64,000 nucleotides of DNA from a virus (taxonomy: Duplodnaviria > Heunggongvirae > Uroviricota > Caudoviricetes). This document shows positions 19,475 to 39,447 of the stretch, in pieces (the first letter of the stretch is position 1; each line of letters starts with the position of its first letter). Position numbers and translations under genes: made by a program. The notes under the pieces are model-generated. The model had not been told where the DNA came from and did no database searches. It saw only the letters and a list, made by a program, of their open reading frames with translations. The stretch covers positions 1-64,000 of the IMG/VR virus record IMGVR_UViG_3300044825_003843; one strand, given 5' to 3'.

Positions 19475-20329
19475 TTAAATTATTTCTATCTGAACCGAGT
19501 CAATTCGTTTTATACTTAACTCAAAATATTCTTTAGAAATTTCACTACCGATAAATTTTCTTCCTGTAAGTATTGAAGCTTTAGCAGTAGTTCCACTTCC
19601 CATAAATGGGTCATAAATAAGTTCTTCAGGGTTCGACCAACTAAGAATATGGTCTTTCACTAGTTGTATTGGAAATATTGCAGGATGTTGATATGCTATT
19701 TCGTCTTCTTGTCCGTTTTTCGATGTCTTATATGTCCAAACATTATATCTTTGTCCGTACTCATCAATTATTTTCTTTTTCCTTTCAATCATACTTCCGT
19801 CAACCTGCCTTGATGTATTTTTTCCCCAACTACCGACTTGTCCTCCGTAGACGTTTTTCCTGTCTTTTATTGAATTAAAAGTTTTTGGTTTACCCTTAGA
19901 AAACACAAACATATATTCAAAAATCTGATGATACCTGTTTGAAGATGGATTTGAAAAATTATTCTTCATGTAAATCATAGTATCATGGATATTGAATCCA
20001 ATTTCTTTGAAGAAAAGAGCCTGTCTGAATGAAGTGCCAGTTTCACTCCCTTTTTCCGTTCCATCTCCAACGACCCATACAACAACCCCGCCTTGTTTAG
20101 TGGTTCGATAAAGTTCCTTTGCAATATTTTCGAAATCAAATGAATAACCATTGAATTCGGTTTTTATACCTGAAATATGATTATTGTAAGTTCTTAAATC
20201 ATCATATGGTGGTGAAGTTATTGTTACGTCAATAGTATTATCAGCAATTTTACCTAAGGTTGTAAGACAATTTTCTTGATATATTTTATTAAATTGAATC
20301 ATAAATTTCGTAAAATTTTTTTGCTGCAA
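19475..20329 (-). CDS. DNA methyltransferase, beta-class (N4-cytosine or N6-adenine), SPPY motif
   Basis: motif IV TSPPY near N-terminus and motif I DPFMGSGTT near C-terminus: beta-class permutation as in M.PvuII. Confidence 0.8.
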   Translation of the reverse strand: MQQKNFTKFMIQFNKIYQENCLTTLGKIADNTIDVTITSPPYDDLRTYNNHISGIKTEFNGYSFDFENIAKELYRTTKQGGVVVWVVGDGTEKGSETGTSFRQALFFKEIGFNIHDTMIYMKNNFSNPSSNRYHQIFEYMFVFSKGKPKTFNSIKDRKNVYGGQVGSWGKNTSRQVDGSMIERKKKIIDEYGQRYNVWTYKTSKNGQEDEIAYQHPAIFPIQLVKDHILSWSNPEELIYDPFMGSGTTAKASILTGRKFIGSEISKEYFELSIKRIDSVQIEII

Positions 20330-20738
20330 TTGATTTATTTACTCCTATTGGGAGATGGTTTAGGTCATCTTTAGAAACCTCTATTAAATCAACACTACCG
20401 CTATGTAAACATCTTAAATCTAATAATAAGTAACTATCCAACGAATTCAACTTTTGTTCAAACCCTTCATTTGTTACACTTCTTCCGTAGCCAACTTCCT
20501 TAGAAGAGGCAAAACTTACCTGAGTTGTAATTGAACGAACCTCAACTCTTTTTCCATCTTTATCCTTCACATCAAATGGTGAATTTTCATTTTGTCTTTC
20601 TCCCTCGTGCCAAAATTCACCTACTCTACCCATAATTCTTCCATCATCACAAAATTTACGAGCTTCATATTCATTCTTGAATCCGAACCCTTTAGCAATT
20701 GCTTTAAAATCAAGTTTTCTACTACCAATTTGTTTCAT
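20289..20738 (-). CDS. putative PvuII-like type II restriction endonuclease
   Basis: 149 aa; NSPFDVKDKDGKRVEVRSIT parallels R.PvuII catalytic segment NDAVDNAGQEYELKSIN (D..D...E.E[LV][KR]SI); overlaps MTase gene by 41 nt. Confidence 0.45.
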   Translation of the reverse strand: MKQIGSRKLDFKAIAKGFGFKNEYEARKFCDDGRIMGRVGEFWHEGERQNENSPFDVKDKDGKRVEVRSITTQVSFASSKEVGYGRSVTNEGFEQKLNSLDSYLLLDLRCLHSGSVDLIEVSKDDLNHLPIGVNKSIAAKKFYEIYDSI

Positions 20739-20772
20739 TAGAAAATGATAATAAAATTTTTGACTACAACCA

Positions 20773-20806
20773 AATAAAAAACCCCATTTGTAGAAACAAA
20801 AGGGGT
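20773..20806 (-). terminator. putative terminator (minus strand)
   Basis: minus-strand CCCCTTTTG-loop-CAAATGGGG followed by TTTTTTTATTT. Confidence 0.45.
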
Positions 20807-20829
20807 CAATTAGTTAAAAAAACTTTGAG

Positions 20830-21780
20830 AATACAAGTTCTATTTGAGAATCTTTAGAAGGATTATGGTTTCCCTCCGTTTCCACTTCCTTTTGAGAAGT
20901 AATCCTCAGTGACGATTAATTAGGTTAATCAAACCTTGAGTTGTCAGATACTCTCTTGATACTTGCTACTCCTCGATGATGCCTCACCAATACTTCCTTG
21001 CGAGAATAGAGAACTTTTTCAAAAATCGTGTCGGGTTTGGGACCCTTCACGGCCGTGAACTTCTCACGACTATGTAGTCACCTTTCACTGACAACTGACG
21101 GACACTTTTCCGTTTGTAATTATTATTGTTAATAACATTTAACAAATGAATTGGTTTGTGGATTTGGAAAGTAGCGGTCCGTCAACCTGCTTCCCCATCT
21201 TTTGAACGAGGAAATACTGAACTACTCTCTGAGACATCCCTGCCTCCATACTTCAAGTTTACTTCATAACTCATGCCTTGGTAGGCTAAGGTTAAGGAGA
21301 ACAACAGCACCACCTGTACGAACTCATACCTTTCGGTTTTAAGTCAACTCTGATATTGAATCACGCAATTGTATAGTTGGATGACCATACTTCTTGCAGG
21401 AGTTCTACGGGTTATTCTTATCGGTGTTCCCACCTCAACCAAACGACCCACATCGCTTGGTCATCATTCCATTTCGCCTACAGTGTCACCCTCAGCTACT
21501 CAGGGACAATGATATCCCGCTTGTCTACTCAAGCTCAACAGAGGACACCCCTATCGAGCCGCAACCTACTTCAACCGAGGTAGGTCACTTTATACTGCTT
21601 TCACAGTTTATTTTATGGACTATAGACCGCCCAATATCTTGAATCAAAGAACTATCAAGTTTGAAGGAAAAAGGTATTTTTACGACCTGAAACCTTTCAG
21701 GAACCTTTACAACCCGTTTCCTTCAATTGTTCTACAAAACTAAGAAGGGTTTTTGATACTTCCAAATTTTATTAGAACTT
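20830..21780 (-). ncRNA. candidate large structured non-coding RNA (ORF-free, GC-elevated block downstream of tRNA); strand uncertain
   Basis: about 1 kb with stops in all six frames, markedly higher GC than flanks, many local helices (e.g. TTCACGGCCGTGAA at 21046..21059); no known ncRNA family recognised by eye. Confidence 0.3.
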
Positions 21781-21788
21781 TTTTTTGT

Positions 21789-21860
21789 TGCGTGAGTAAG
21801 AATCGAACTTACGACCTAAAGGTTATGAGCCTTCCGAGCTACCGCTGCTCTATCACGCGA
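21789..21860 (-). tRNA. tRNA-Met (anticodon CAT), initiator-like
   Basis: 72-nt cloverleaf CGCGTGA-TA-GAGC-AGCGGTA-GCTC-G-GAAGG-CTCATAA-CCTTT-AGGTC-GTAAG-TTCGATT-CTTAC-TCACGCA-A; C1:A72 mismatch and A11:U24 typical of bacterial initiator tRNA. Confidence 0.8.
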
Positions 21861-22166
21861 TGTTAAGTTAAATTCTACCCATTCCCCGTCGTCACCATCC
21901 AAGTCATGCTCTGGTTGTACATGGGTAGAATCAATATATTAAAGAACTTTATTCGATTAAAAAGTCCCACAAATCTACGATACTTTTCTCAAACTACCAA
22001 ATTCGTGGGACTAAGGGGGGAGAGATGTTTGACCATCTCATTTGTTTCACAAAGTTAAGAAGAATTTCTCAATTCGTCAAATTTTTTCTTGTGAAACTTT
22101 TTTTGTGGGGTGTTCACCTTTTTACAGGTGTGGATATATAAATATCACATTAATTTGTAAAGTCAA

Positions 22167-32033: not shown

Positions 32034-33068
32034 ATGTCAACTTGGAAAGATTATATTGAAGAATTCAACTCAGGAGATACAGACTTTTTAGGAAACTTTG
32101 GAGATGATATTGGTCTGTTCGTAGATTTAATAACTCAGAAAGGATTACTTAAATACTTGAACGTTAATGCAAGTATGGAACCTGAAGTTGAGAATAAAGT
32201 TGTGTTGGCCTTTTATGAACATCACATGCCAAGTTATATAGAATTTTTACAAGAGAATTTGAGTGATGTAGAATTTGAAAATGGAGTGTTTTATTTTGTC
32301 GGTGACCCTTCAGATTTATCTACTCTTTTTGATGAAGGTAGAAATACCTTGCAGAAAAAAACTGTAGAAAAAATTTTGAGTGGTGAAGGTTTAGACTTTG
32401 AATTTTTTGACTACACAACAGACAACGTTTATTCCGACGTTGTTGAAGAATTGAATATTGTAAATTTGCAATCCTTATATGAAGCCGTTCTTTACTTTTC
32501 CAAAGACGTTCAAATAGAACCAAGTACAGAACTTTTAGAATTGATTGCTGAAGAACAAGGTCACCCTGATTTTGTAATCATAGACAAAAACAATGTTGAA
32601 AGAATTGTCGATGACAGAGAAACTTTCGAATCACTTCTTAATGATGAATTATCTGATTTGAAGGGTAATCTCATAAACCTTCATCATTGGGCTTACAATT
32701 CAGCATATGAAGAAGAAGTTTACGAGGAAGTTTGGAATCAGCTTGATAAGTTTTTTGTCACTGACCAAAAGAAATGGGTTTCAGTACCAATGTATACAGG
32801 ACCTGCTGGTTCACAAAAGATTGCAAGTACTATAGAAAGAATGAAATTACCAATAAGAAATTTACCCGAAATAATAAATGATTATCTAAGATGGAATGTG
32901 GAAGCTACATATCCAGAATCAGTTAGGTATTATGGTAACTACTCAGCAATATTGACATGGGTTCTCGACGAAAACCGTGATTATTCAAAGGTATATCCCC
33001 CTGATTTTCCTGATAGTTCTAAAGTTGATAAAAACATCAACGAAATGTTCAACGATTATATATACTAA
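32034..33068 (+). CDS. hypothetical acidic protein
   Basis: 344-aa ORF, only long plus-strand gene near the fibre module. Confidence 0.5.
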
Positions 33069-35152
33069 CCATTAAGTTTGTCTTCTATCTTTTTTAACTT
33101 ATCCTCTACCTGAGTCAATAATCTATATTGTTCTTTAATTGCTTGAGTGCAAATTGCAACAATCTCAGAGTATTTTACTTTATATCCATTTTTTTCGTCA
33201 CCATATACAACCTGTGGTAAAACCTCTTGAAGTTCTTGTGCAATGAAACCTATATCATCATCGTCTTTCTTGTGAATATGATATTTTTCTGGGTTCTTCC
33301 ACTTAAATCTAACACCCCTCAATTTTTGGATTATACTAACAGCATCCTCTATTACTTTGATATTTTTCTTCATCCTTGAATCAGACGGTGGTCCGATTGC
33401 ACCTGTTCTACCTGTCTGTCCAATATTACCTTGAGCACCTTGAGCTCCTTGTGGACCAGGTCCTCCACTTTGTCCTTGAGCTCCTTGGGCACCTGTTGCT
33501 CCTTGTGCACCTTGAGGACCCGCGGGATTACCCGCAAGGTTATTACCTTGGTCACCAAAATTTCCTTGAGCACCCTGAGTACCTGGTGGGCCAGGAGTTG
33601 GTTGACCTTGAGCACCTTGAAATCCTTGACCACCAACAGGTCCTTGAGCACCTTGAGCACCGGGGGGACCTGTATTCCCTTGTGGTCCAGGTGCTCCTAT
33701 AGGACCTGGTGCACCTGGCGGACTAAGTCCTGGTGCTCCTTGAGCCCCTTGAGCACCTTTCGAACCCTGACTTCCTGCGACTCCAGGAGTTCCTTGTGCA
33801 CCTTGTGGTCCTTGTGGTCCGAGAGCTCCAGGATTACCTGTAGGTCCTTGAGCACCTTGTGCTCCTTGCCCTCCTTGAGCTCCTTGAGGTCCCTGAGCTC
33901 CTTGAGCTCCCTGAGCACCCTGAGCACCCTGAGGTCCTAAAGCACCTTGTGCACCTTGACCACCCCGTGGGCCTTGAGGACCCGCAGTCAAAGATTGAGC
34001 TCCTTGAGCACCTTGACCTCCTTGAGCACCAACAGCTCCTTGTGCTCCCTGCGCTCCCTGAGCTCCCTGTCCTCCTTGAGCACCTTGAGCGCCTTGACCT
34101 CCTTGAGCACCTTGACCTCCTTGAGCACCTTGGCCTCCTTGAGCACCTTGACCTCCTTGAGGACCAACAGCTCCCTGCGCTCCTTGTATTCCTTGAGCAC
34201 CTTGACCACCTTGAGCTCCTTGAGCACCTTGACCTCCTTGAGCACCTTGTATTCCTTGAGCACCTTGACCTCCTTGAGCGCCTTGAGCACCTTGACCTCC
34301 TTGAGCACCTTGAGCACCTTGACCTCCCTGAGCACCTTGAGCACCCTGTCCTCCTTGAGCACCCTGTCCTCCTTGAGCACCCTGTCCTCCCTGTGCTCCA
34401 ATGTTTGCCCCTGGGGCACCTGTATTTCCTTGAGCACCTTGAGCTCCTTGAGCACCTTGAGCTCCTGTTGCTCCTTGAGCACCTTGAGCACCCTGTCCTC
34501 CTTGAGCACCCTGTCCTCCTTGGGCACCTTGTCCTCCTTGGGCACCAACGTTACCCACAGCACCCTGAGCACCTTGACCTCCCTGAGCACCTTGAGCACC
34601 CTGTCCTCCTTGAGCACCCTGTCCTCCTTGAGCACCCTGTCCTCCTTGAGCACCCTGTCCTCCTTGAGCACCTTGAGCTCCTGTTGCTCCTTGAGCACCT
34701 TGTCCTCCTTGAGCACCTTGTCCTCCTTGAGCACCAACGTTACCCGCAACACCCTGAGCACCTTGACCTCCCTGAGCACCTTGAGCACCTTGTGCACCTT
34801 GAGCACCTTGACCTCCCTGAGCACCTTGAGCACCTTGTGCTCCTTGGGGCCCTTGTGTACCTGAAGAACCTTTTGCACCTTGAGCTCCTTGGGGTCCTTG
34901 TGGTTGTCTGTTACCCTGCCATGCCGTCGTATTAATCAAAGTTCCAGCATCATTAATAAGAGTATTGGTTAATCGTAAATCTGCATTTGTAACTCTGAAA
35001 TTAGGATAAGTATTATCCAAGGACAGATAAGTAGTAACCCCTCTTCTAAATTGTAAACTAGCTGAGGTTACAACCAAATCAGTTTGGGTCGTTGCAGAGT
35101 CATAAAAGGAAATCGTCCCCGTACCAGGCGTTATCTTAATATCTTCAGGCAA
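33065..35152 (-). CDS. collagen-like triple-helix repeat tail fibre protein with C-terminal intramolecular chaperone (peptidase S74-like) domain
   Basis: about 480 aa of G-X-Y repeats ([10 protein letters not shown]...) and C-terminal [32 protein letters not shown] (SDxRxK self-cleavage motif). Confidence 0.85.
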
Positions 35153-38100
35153 TCAATTTTGTTTTTAAATATTTTATTTTTTCATAAATAGAATTTATCC
35201 TTTTTTGTTGTTCTTGAATTGAACCGATACAAAGAGCAACAATTAAACCATATTCCAATCTTTTATATCCATCGTCCTCCGTCCACACAACTTGTGGTAA
35301 TACCATTTCTACCTCCTGAGCAATATATCCAACAGAATCTTTTTCATAATAGTGTTCTTGAGCTGGGTTGAGATAGTTTTGAACTTTATCATTTTTTTCA
35401 TCCCAAGTAAAGTAAACACTTTGAAGTTTCAAAATTGTATCAATACTGTTTTTCAAAGTCTGAACTTTTGACTTCAATCTTCTATCTGAAGTAGGTCCAG
35501 TTGGTCCTTGCGGTCCTTGAGAACCTTGAACCCCTTGAGCACCTTGAGCTCCCTGTGGTCCCTGTGGACCAGCACCTGCAGTTGCAGGTGCACCAACACT
35601 ACCTTGAGCTCCTTGTGCACCTTGAGCCCCTTGCGGGGCACTTAACCCTTGGGTTCCTTGAGCACCTTGAGCACCCTGAGGTCCTCGAGGTCCAGTTGGA
35701 GAGGCACCCTGAGCACCTTGTGCACCCTGAACCGTACCTTGCGGTCCAGCAGCTCCCGAGTTACCTGTCACACCTTGAGCTCCTTGTGGACCTTGTGGAC
35801 CTTGGGCACCTTGAACACCTTGAACACCTTGTGGTCCCTGAGCACCTTGCCCACCTTGGGCACCTTGGGCACCTTGGGCACCTTGTGTAGTATTTGTAGT
35901 TCCTGGTGCGCCAGGATTACCGACCACAGCACTTGCACTTCCTTGGGCTCCTTGAGGTCCTTTCGCACCTTGCGCTCCTGTGTTAGCACCTGACGCACCT
36001 GTGTTACCTGTCCCTCCAGGGACACCTTGAGCTCCGGTCGCACCCACGGGTCCTTGAAGTCCTTGAGCTCCTTGGTTTCCTTGGAATCCTTGTGGTCCTT
36101 GTGGTCCAGGTGCTCCAGGCGTTGTGTTGGCAGCACCTTGAGCACCTTGTCCTCCTTGCGCCCCTTGAGCACCCTGAGCACCTGTATTTGCACCCTGAGC
36201 TCCTTGAGCACCTGTCGCTCCTTGCACCCCTTGAGCACCCTGAGCACCTGTATTTGCACCCTGAGCTCCTTGAGCACCTTGAGCTCCTTGTTGTCCAACT
36301 GCGCCGGTATTTAGACCCTGAGCTCCCTGAGCGCCTGTTGCTCCTTGTATCCCTAATGCACCCTGAGCACCTGTATTTGCCCCTTGAGCACCTTGTGCAC
36401 CTTGTCCTCCCTGAGCACCTTGTGCACCTTGTCCACCCTGAGCTCCTGTATTCGCACCTTGAGCACCTTGTGCACCTTGTGCACCTTGTGCACCTTGTAC
36501 ACCTTGTGCACCTGTATTTACACCTTGAGCTCCTTGAGCCCCTGTTGCTCCTTGAGCTCCTTGTCCACCCTGAGCACCTGTATTTGCCCCTTGAGCACCT
36601 TGTGCACCTTGTCCTCCCTGAGCGCCTTGTGCTCCCTGAGCACCTGTATTTGCTCCCTGAGCTCCCTGAGCACCTTGTCCTCCCTGAGTGCCTTGTGCTC
36701 CCTGAGCACCTGTATTTGCTCCCTGAGCACCTTGAGCTCCTTGAGCACCTTGAGCTCCTTGAGCACCTTGAGCTCCTGTGTTTGCTCCCTGAGCACCTTG
36801 AGCTCCCTGAGCACCTTGTCCTCCCTGAGCACCTTGAGCACCTGTATTTGCTCCCTGAGCACCTTGTCCTCCCTGAGCACCTTGTCCTCCCTGAGCACCT
36901 TGAGCTCCTGTGTTTGCTCCCTGAGCACCTTGTGCTCCTTGCACACCAATACTTCCTTGAGCACCTTGGGCTCCCTGCACACCAATACTTCCTTGAGCAC
37001 CTTGAGGTCCTTGTGACCCCTGAGCACCTTGAGCTCCTTGTCCTCCTTGGAACCCAATAATATTTGTTGTTGGTCCTACCCAAATGGCAGAACTATTAAC
37101 AAATAAAGTATTTCCAACATACAATCCACCTGAATTTAGGCTAGCCCCTGATGATAATATATTTTGTGGCCCTATTTGAAATCCCGTGGAAACTGTTGAA
37201 GATGAGAGTTGTAAAAACAAATTTTCAACATTCAACTGTAACTTGTTTGTACCATCATCGAATATGATGAATGGTTTCAGAACTGAAGCATTACCTTGAG
37301 GATATATTATTATATTAGCCATTTATTTTACTTTCTAATTCTTTTACTTCGATAAGAAGTTTTTCTATTTCTCTTTGATGCTCTTTTATCGCTTCAACCA
37401 CAACCGCGTTCAATTTGGTGTATTCCACGTAATAATATCCAGACTTATTGACACCAACGGCCTCAGGGAAATATTTCTTAAGGTCTTGGGCTATCAATCC
37501 GATAGACTGTAGTTTACCTACCTGAGAAAGATAATCATATTTGTTAGGGTCTATTTTATCATTCCATTCAAATTGAATTACTTTCAGTTTATTAATACTC
37601 TCTAACACATTTTCAAGGTTAGATACTTTCTTTTTCAATCTTTTATCTGAGAAACCTGGTGGACCTGGGAAACCAGGGTCCCCTTTAGCACCTTGAGCCC
37701 CTTGAGCACCCGTATTTCCTGTCGGTCCTCCACTTGCAGGACCTTGAGCTCCTTGTGCACCTTGAGCTCCGGTGTCCCCTTGAGCACCAAATTTTGCACC
37801 TGTAGCACCTTGAGCACCTTGTGCACCTTGAAACCCTGTTGGTCCTTGAGGTCCGAGAGTTCCTGGAGCACCTTGAGCCCCATTGGGTCCGAATGCACCT
37901 GGTCCTCCTTGAAAACCTATATTGCCTGGCGCACCTGGCCTTCCGACGAATCCTTGTGCTCCTTGTAGTCCTTGTATTCCTGTAGCACCTTGAGCCCCTT
38001 GAGCACCTTGACCTCCTTGGGCCCCTTGAGCACCTGTAGGACCATTAGGTCCAGGTGGACCTTGGACTCCTTGTGCTCCTGCAGCTCCCTGAGCACCTTG

Positions 38101-39130
38101 TGGACCTTGTTGTCCCTGAGCACCTTGCGGTCCCAAAGGGCCTTGAGCACCTTGTGGACCTGTGGGTCCTGCGGCTCCTTGGAAATTTTGAGGTCCTTTC
38201 GCACCTTGAGCACCTTGTGAACCTTGAGCACCTTGAATACCCGGAGGTCCAATAGGTCCTATAGGTCCTTGAGCACCTTGAGCACCTTGAGCACCTTGAG
38301 CACCTTGTCCACCTTGAGCACCTTGTGGACCTTTGGAACCCTGAGCTCCCTGAGCTCCTTGTGCTCCCTGAGCTCCTTGTGCTCCTTGTGGACCTTTGGA
38401 ACCCTGAGCTCCCTGAGCACCTTGTGGCCCTTGAGCTCCTTGTGGTCCTGATGGTCCTTTGGCCCCTTGAGCCCCTTGAGCTCCTTGACCTCCTTGAGCT
38501 CCTTGTGGACCCCGTGGACCTTGAGCACCCACAGAACCCTGTGCACCTGTACTTCCCACAGCACCTTGAGCTCCTTGAGGTCCCCGTGGACCTTGAGCAC
38601 CTTGACCACCTTGAGCACCCTGCCCTCCTTGAGCTCCTTGTGGACCTCTTGGTCCTTGAGCACCTTGTCCTCCTTGAGCTCCTTGCGGACCTTGAGCTCC
38701 TTGAGGTCCCCGTGGACCTTGAGCACCTTGAGCACCTTGGCCACCTTGAGCACCTTGAGCTCCTTGTGGACCTCTTGGTCCTTGAGCACCTTGTCCACCT
38801 TGAGCTCCTTGTCCACCTTGGGCTCCTTGAGGTCCGGCAAAACCTATATTCCCTTGAGCACCTTGCCCACCTTGAGCACCTTGAGCACCTTGTGGCCCTT
38901 TCGAACCCTGTGCACCCTGAGCTCCCTGAGCACCCTGACCTCCTTGAGCACCTTGTGGCCCTTTCGAACCCTGTGCACCCTGAGCTCCCTGAGCACCCTG
39001 ACCTCCTTGAGCACCTTGTGGCCCTTTCGAACCCTGTGCACCTTGAGCACCTTGTCCTCCCTGAGCACCTTGAGCGCCTTGTCCTCCCTGAGCACCTTGA
39101 GCACCGATATTTCCTATAAATCCCACATTT
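33400..39130. repeat. highly repetitive 9-nt periodic DNA (GXY-encoding ccttgagca/ccttgtgca units) spanning three genes
   Basis: visible tandem near-identical 9/18/27-nt units; all six frames open. Confidence 0.9.
35145..37322 (-). CDS. collagen-like tail fibre protein with C-terminal S74-like chaperone domain (paralog 2)
   Basis: [20 protein letters not shown] repeats; C-terminal [30 protein letters not shown]; overlaps neighbours by 8 nt. Confidence 0.85.
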
Positions 39131-39447
39131 CCTGGCGCACCTTGAGCCCCTTGTCCTCCCGCAATATTTGTGGTTGGTCCGACCCAATTCAAAGTATTAT
39201 TTAATATCTGTATTCCACCAACACTCATGAAATTTCTAATATTCAAAGTGTATCCTGAAATATTAGTGTTCGAAGGATTAACTGATAATATATTACTTTG
39301 AGTTGCAGAACTAAAAGTCACTACAGCACCCGATAAAACTTTCAATGAAATGGGTACATCACCGACATTATTTATAAAGTCGATAAAAGGAATTCTGTCA
39401 GGTTGTTGAACCAACCGACTCGGAACTATTTTAATGTTTAGACCCAT
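37315..39447 (-). CDS. collagen-like tail fibre protein with C-terminal S74-like chaperone domain (paralog 3)
   Basis: [16 protein letters not shown] repeats; C-terminal [30 protein letters not shown]. Confidence 0.85.

Follow-up and report, generated by a model that had tools for sequence, protein, structure and literature searches.

The overlapping gene pair

Two overlapping genes on the minus strand of IMG/VR virus record IMGVR_UViG_3300044825_003843 (Caudoviricetes), of which positions 1 to 64,000 form the window analyzed here, encode a 149-amino-acid protein and, directly downstream, a DNA methyltransferase. A first-pass annotation had proposed that they form a phage-borne type II restriction-modification system made of a small PD-(D/E)xK endonuclease and a beta-class methyltransferase, and this candidate is supported by the predicted fold of the small protein, by its family and by the linkage of the two genes. 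In our view the phage probably carries the pair as a mobile type II restriction-modification cassette. The window is phage-like, encoding a collagen-like tail-fiber protein and an SbcC/gp46-like protein, and both open reading frames (ORFs) are found in the ORF list where the annotation had placed them. The features of the pair are the following:

20289..20738, minus strand: putative endonuclease gene, RsaI-family PD-(D/E)xK, 149 amino acids (ORF list)
20616..20618, minus strand: E41, on the helix preceding the predicted beta2/beta3 core segment
20526..20576, minus strand: putative endonuclease catalytic core segment F55-T71, predicted strands beta2 and beta3 (coordinates checked)
20571..20573, minus strand: D56, start of predicted beta2
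20541..20543, minus strand: E66, on predicted beta3
20535..20537, minus strand: R68, on predicted beta3
19475..20329, minus strand: methyltransferase gene, longest ORF, 284 amino acids from the TTG at 20329 (ORF list)
19475..20302, minus strand: methyltransferase gene, likely form, 275 amino acids from the ATG at 20302 (gene-caller start and orthologue alignments)
20289..20302, minus strand: 14-nt overlap of the endonuclease 3' end and the methyltransferase 5' end (sequence and ATG start)
20204..20215, minus strand: methyltransferase catalytic motif IV, S-P-P-Y, residues 30-33 (coordinates checked)
19586..19606, minus strand: methyltransferase S-adenosylmethionine-binding motif I, F-M-G-S-G-T-T, residues 233-239 (coordinates checked; relatives in PDB)

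The overlap of 41 nt given by the first-pass annotation holds for the longest methyltransferase ORF only. An in-frame ATG at 20302 (MIQFNKIY...) was chosen by the gene caller on an identical metagenome contig, and alignments with methyltransferase orthologues of other phage contigs start at the same codon. Translation therefore most likely begins at this ATG, and the overlap is most likely 14 nt. Orthologous loci show comparably short overlaps, and the arrangement suggests that the two genes are co-transcribed and translationally coupled.

The methyltransferase matches PF01555 over its full length (E 4.1e-42), and its motif IV (SPPY) comes before motif I (FMGSGTT) in the sequence, which is the order of the beta class to which it had been assigned. 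Its sequence matches in PDB comprise M.MboIIA, CcrM, DpnA, N4-cytosine methyltransferases and M.PvuII, so that adenine and cytosine-N4 enzymes are both present. SPP[YF] is typical of N4-cytosine methyltransferases. The serine of the SPPY motif therefore favors an N4-cytosine target, and the enzyme probably makes N4-methylcytosine (m4C).

Family and predicted fold of the small protein

The 149-amino-acid ORF is not a chance reading frame, since its product has more than 120 homologues (149-174 amino acids) at E < 1e-19 and a profile search with its family returned 295 representative clusters at 50% identity. None of the cluster names was informative, all being unnamed; no Pfam or NCBIfam model was found for the clade, and ten family members matched no NCBIfam model. 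Close homologues (the A1 clade) came exclusively from contigs of viruses and metagenomes. A scan of GTDB with the alignment of these close homologues found nothing, tblastn with the window protein itself gave no match among INPHARED phages and PLSDB plasmids, and searches of PDB sequences, with the single sequence or with a profile, yielded nothing useful, only a chance match to nsp8.

Residues D32-G33-R34, E41, E51, D56, E66, R68, F76, S79, G83, R86 and D101, among others, are invariant in 41 close homologues. Across 55 diverse members, which are 21-45% identical to the window protein, G33, R34, E41, D56, E66, R68, F76, S79, G83, R86 and D107 are each at least 90% conserved. K80 was considered as a relocated catalytic lysine and ruled out, as it is not conserved across the wider family.

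AlphaFold2, given the alignment of the protein, produced a model with a predicted local distance difference test score of 92.6 and a predicted template modeling (TM) score of 0.86; it places E41 in the core helix, D56 where beta2 begins and the E66-x-R68 motif within beta3. With this model as query, Foldseek gave no match below E 1e-3; its top 13 matches were all NhoI, Eco15I or PvuII, the best being NhoI, of the BisI family. Model and matches together predict a PD-(D/E)xK fold for the small ORF and membership of that superfamily, in line with the original proposal. The acidic residues of the PD-(D/E)xK pattern (E41, D56 and E66) are present and conserved, and the lysine position holds Arg68, which is at least 90% conserved, with lysine in a few members. 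One of these is gp153 of Synechococcus phage Syn19, which has E-G-K where the window protein has E66-V-R68. Because Syn19 gp153 and other members carry lysine there, Arg68 appears to occupy the position of the catalytic lysine and arginine is the family norm, which settles the change in the E-x-K motif that the first-pass annotation had flagged for checking.

The arginine might also be taken to mean that the protein is an inactive PD-(D/E)xK descendant working as a DNA-binding factor, for instance one that regulates the methyltransferase or helps set its specificity. This seems to us very improbable. The three acidic positions and the arginine are strictly conserved across the 295 clusters, lysine and arginine interchange at position 68, and no helix-turn-helix family was detected in a Pfam-type domain search. 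In addition, the Rhodobacteraceae homologues also carry arginine, and their presumed counterpart, RsaI, is an active commercial enzyme.

Profile comparisons and the predicted structure indicate that the small protein belongs to the RsaI family of endonucleases (PDLC03550-type) and not to that of PvuII. The PADLOC type II restriction endonuclease (REase) model PDLC03550 matches the window protein at E 7.7e-9 and all 55 of the 55 diverse relatives (best E 3.6e-47), and a distant family member used as query reaches Syn19 gp153, which was deposited as 'R.RsaI endonuclease'. The alignment of the family profile with gp153 by hhalign has a probability of 99.5% (E 2.5e-22), and the same Syn19 protein is the best match of the AlphaFold2 model in a Foldseek search of BFVD (E 2.6e-6, TM-scores 0.73/0.65). 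BLASTP aligned the window protein with homologues of Rhodobacter capsulatus and of another GTDB contig (L127) at E ~1e-11, a comparison in which W-E-[VI]-R and F-x-P-S...G-x-G-R are forced by the DNA pattern used to search GTDB and are not independent evidence. The RsaI-like profile also matched in 10 separate stretches of a 3033-amino-acid protein (P0341). We know of no solved structure for the RsaI family; the AlphaFold2 model provides it with a confident structural model, and E-x-R can now be documented as the normal variant of its active site. RsaI had been predicted to be a PD-(D/E)xK enzyme in 2008, at the lowest confidence only (PMC2441816).

The first-pass annotation had instead likened the segment FDVKDKDGKRVEVRSIT, which we located as residues 55-71 at 20526..20576, to the catalytic core of R.PvuII. 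The gap-free register that it noticed is real (D56/E66/R68 against D58/E68/K70 of PvuII); the parallel is, by sequence alone, not beyond chance. Using a PvuII query sequence verified against PDB and 28 family homologues, hhalign gave the profile of the small ORF a probability of 0.3% against PvuII and 0.2% against the homologues (E 0.21 and 0.38, respectively), and Pfam PF09225 was not matched at E <=1. On these two results the small protein was ruled out as a member of the R.PvuII family. The sole stretch that hhalign aligned, D56..T72 with PvuII D58..I74, is the register noted earlier, and the sequence resemblance gains meaning only through the predicted structure, which has a PvuII-like three-dimensional architecture. 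We therefore describe the resemblance, as modeled, as structural and local, and not as demonstrable homology. The paper on NhoI names PvuII as the canonical enzyme most closely related to the BisI family (PMC11347163), and this kinship makes a structural neighborhood of NhoI, Eco15I and PvuII coherent.

With NhoI as the best structural match, the small protein could be a modification-dependent endonuclease of the same kind, cutting methylated foreign DNA. The conservation of its residues and its linkage to a methyltransferase disfavor this reading, to which we give hardly any credence. Enzymes of the BisI family (NhoI, Eco15I; type IIM) are encoded by solitary genes, depend on 5-methylcytosine and carry Q-x-K, whereas the window protein carries E-x-R and has a methyltransferase gene beside its own; when PDB sequences were searched with its profile, no similarity to BisI or NhoI emerged.

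Linkage, recognition sites and genomic surroundings

In IMG/VR, a methyltransferase orthologue lies directly downstream of the endonuclease homologue at 34 of 40 loci, with 73-88% identity for the methyltransferase and 40-72% for the endonuclease. None of twelve neighboring window genes was found in the loci bearing the pair, which therefore moves as a unit between otherwise unrelated phage contigs. In a survey of 80 loci anchored on the methyltransferase, orthologues of at least 73% identity had this endonuclease upstream at 37 of 41 informative loci; the remaining 4 have a different upstream ORF, of 182-197 amino acids, with a PD..E-x-K-like motif. These replacement ORFs (1444..1992 in L177/L220, 1371..1964 in L200, 1374..1964 in L192) are unrelated to the window endonuclease and precede methyltransferases 74-84% identical to that of the window. 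Their motifs, for example 'GYPDL...YPELK' and 'SDYVFDNVFIEGK', make these loci look like cases in which the endonuclease was replaced beside a conserved methyltransferase.

Bacterial and archaeal loci were collected from GTDB with a hand-made degenerate DNA pattern, giving at least 120 loci of which 118 hold a family member. Among the matches listed, an N6_N4 methyltransferase lies within 200 nt at 90 of these 118 loci: downstream in 41 cases, upstream in 31 and on the opposite strand in 18. The cellular partners have two architectures, one of ~409 amino acids with motif I before SPPF, which adjoins the Rhodobacter and Paracoccus homologues, and one of 265-275 amino acids of the beta class. 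We also counted as linkage evidence a relative of 325 amino acids (P0329) which joins an RsaI-like domain to a C-terminal piece of an N6_N4 methyltransferase, a fusion that may be real or a frameshift artefact. Persistent linkage despite changes of gene order and of partner is the usual signature of restriction-modification, and the pair shows the close and conserved association of two separate genes that an orthodox type II system has.

The mobility of the cassette could alternatively come from the nuclease itself, as a homing-type endonuclease like I-Ssp6803I that cuts empty target sites. This we find exceedingly improbable: neither an intron nor an intein surrounds the gene, its product matches a type II REase model derived from REBASE, and the conservation of its residues speaks against it as well. 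In cellular genomes the protein accompanies methyltransferases whatever the relative orientation of the genes, which is the mark of restriction-modification.

Several observations weigh against a restriction-modification cassette. The canonical catalytic lysine is replaced by arginine, the window protein is divergent (21-45% identical to the wider family), and its link to authentic R.RsaI rests on the name given by a depositor in GenBank/UniProt and on the Rhodobacteraceae homologues, not on a REBASE sequence. Site-avoidance statistics single out no one site in the window, and no modification gene adjoins some of the endonuclease relatives in marine phages. The best PADLOC model for the methyltransferase is that of an orphan methyltransferase (oMTase, PDLC03714, E 4e-95), and its family is in fact mostly orphan in phages, the endonuclease being absent at 37 of 37 loci with upstream sequence and at most 66% identity.

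This largely solitary family and its orphan-type model also favor an explanation in which the two genes are functionally independent, the one an orphan anti-restriction methyltransferase and the other a general nuclease that degrades host DNA or processes DNA without relying on that methylation. The same reading draws on solitary nuclease relatives of marine phages, which neighbor gp32 and RecA-like (Rad51/RecA_N) genes, and on further relatives whose neighbors are Mom and DruA-like genes and not a methyltransferase. We nevertheless hold this to be unlikely in the window, as the two genes overlap by 14 nt and travel jointly between unrelated genomes, the subclade of methyltransferases of at least 73% identity co-occurs with the nuclease at 37 of its 41 informative loci, and the cellular homologues listed are methyltransferase-linked at 90 of 118 loci.

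The marine cases comprise metagenome contigs L246-L251, where the RsaI-like proteins P0090 and P0110 lie near the gp32 and RecA-like genes; GTAC occurs at its expected frequency in L246-L248. In these contigs either protection is encoded elsewhere, or specificity or function differs.

In a sister clade, a DruA-like gene (238-253 amino acids, PF14236) takes the place of the methyltransferase after the RsaI-like nuclease (L028 3052..6135, L031 3100..6205 and L243 2151..5256; also L033 and L038-L040). Two Mom-family genes (PF25680) precede the nuclease in L028, L031 and L243. The nucleases of this clade have weak DUF6998 matches, and a library search on DUF6998/PF22522 and phage-encoded restriction-modification gave nothing useful; the nuclease genes of L039 and L040 carry a frameshift. 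GTAC is absent and GATC occurs at most once in L031, L033 and L243, and L028 is strongly depleted in both. In the sister clade, restriction may be coupled to hypermodification. A broader and quite tentative idea, which we think has some chance of being right but would not favor, is that phages use RsaI-like nucleases as a weapon for host takeover or competitor exclusion, with an interchangeable self-protection module: the module would be an m4C methyltransferase in the clade of the window and the Mom-Mom-DruA-like cluster in L028, L031 and L243, with none adjacent in some marine phages. If members linked to Mom and DruA-like genes do turn out to be blocked by a non-methyl adenine modification, this would be restriction-'hypermodification' of a kind not described.

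By analogy with RsaI, the recognition site of the window pair might be GTAC. R.RsaI, biochemically characterized from Rhodobacter blasticus 28/5, cuts GT^AC, leaving blunt ends. The product of M.RsaI is GTA(m4C) (PMC3287169, PMC6256690), which fits the SPPY enzyme of the window. GTAC is nearly absent in several related phage loci, and the window has about half as many as expected (79 against 149 under a trinucleotide Markov model over the 64,000 nt). GATC is far more strongly avoided (0 against ~177 expected, z -22.7), and CTAG (27/95) and CCGG (18/44) are depleted as well. Related phage loci avoid differing sets of sites, including GATC, GTAC and TCGA, so that palindrome avoidance points to no single site. 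GTAC is only a weak guess, and the divergence of the window protein means that its specificity may differ from it. The absence of GATC points to strong selection by GATC-specific host restriction.

Other features of the window lie upstream of the endonuclease gene or further away:

20774..20807, minus strand: hairpin with a U-run after it, similar to an intrinsic terminator, at the upstream cassette boundary (fold -19.1 kcal/mol, z -3.2)
20822..21229, minus strand: GOLLD RNA (Rfam RF02032, 316 bits, E 9e-90, full model)
21787..21859, minus strand: tRNA-Met(CAT)
20739..22166: entirely non-coding stretch
33065..39447, minus strand: three consecutive large ORFs (695, 725 and 710 amino acids), each overlapped by many long alternative-frame ORFs

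The hairpin separates the GOLLD RNA match from the start codon of the endonuclease gene, and the consensus terminator scan did not report it because its stem has a mismatch; the scan for sigma-70 promoters and terminators was uninformative. The GOLLD RNA directly precedes the endonuclease gene, with which it shares a strand, and its unmodeled 5' half probably adjoins the tRNA, since 20739..22166 is non-coding. GOLLD was found in none of 16 related restriction-modification-bearing loci, so that its adjacency seems incidental, and we rejected a functional link to the cassette. The middle ORF of 33065..39447 matches collagen-like tail-fiber PHROGs in several repeated stretches, and the region reads as a repetitive tail-fiber gene array.

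Proposed mechanism and known systems

In the restriction-modification cassette that we propose, the endonuclease would be a homodimer with the predicted PD-(D/E)xK fold and a putative active site formed by E41, D56 and E66-x-R68. The methyltransferase, sharing its specificity, would methylate its target site in the phage genome during each round of infection, and packaged genomes would thus already be protected on entering the next cell. With genomes protected in advance, the endonuclease could be made at once, which would fit the order of the two genes (endonuclease, then methyltransferase), their overlap and the absence of a controller gene. It would then cut unmethylated DNA, whether of the host chromosome or of a co-infecting unmethylated phage, and the same methylation might protect the phage against host enzymes of identical specificity. 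Restriction-modification systems of chloroviruses degrade host DNA (PMC7019647).

A complete system in a lytic-looking phage had been presented as unusual, which overstates its rarity given Syn19, the occurrence of the pair in ~40 IMG/VR contigs and the chlorovirus precedent (PMC7019647). The restriction-modification type, the RsaI family and its carriage by a phage (Syn19) were already known; the clade of the window is unannotated and divergent. Our analysis gives a name and a testable function to several hundred phage proteins now labeled 'hypothetical', and describes a cassette that hops between unrelated, mostly AT-rich environmental phages and a clade that is a possible source of new restriction specificities. 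It also bears on the use of restriction-modification by virulent phages, the concept of virus-encoded type II systems being itself established.

The closest known counterparts are RsaI and the Syn19 proteins. They share with the window an endonuclease family of ~150-170 amino acids with common signature residues (DGR, E, D, E-x-R/K, F-x-PS...G-x-GR, D), and SPPY in the window methyltransferase is what one would expect if it makes m4C, as M.RsaI does. In Syn19, a virulent phage, gp153 likewise lies upstream of and overlaps a DNA methyltransferase gene, gp154. The window endonuclease is, however, only 22% identical to gp153 in the Foldseek alignment, with no alignment by BLASTP, and 32-42% identical to bacterial members over partial alignments. 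The window methyltransferase is 25% identical to that of Syn19, and it differs as a 275-amino-acid beta-class enzyme from the Rhodobacteraceae neighbors of ~409 amino acids, in which motif I precedes SPPF (alpha-type).

R.PvuII is likewise a small PD-(D/E)xK enzyme (157 amino acids), with a D-x9-E-x-K/R core spacing identical to that of the window protein and a place among its best structural matches, and its partner M.PvuII is a beta-class N4-cytosine methyltransferase. The window protein differs in having arginine for lysine and in lacking a PF09225 match, and the window pair in having no controller (C) protein gene and in being co-oriented and overlapping. Chlorovirus type II systems, such as CviAII and CviQI, resemble the pair in belonging to lytic viruses, in their adjacent endonuclease and methyltransferase genes and in a plausible model in which host DNA is degraded and methylated viral DNA is spared (PMC7019647). 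They differ in that their carriers infect eukaryotic algae and their enzyme families are unrelated to those of the window; the chlorovirus endonuclease is packaged in the virion.
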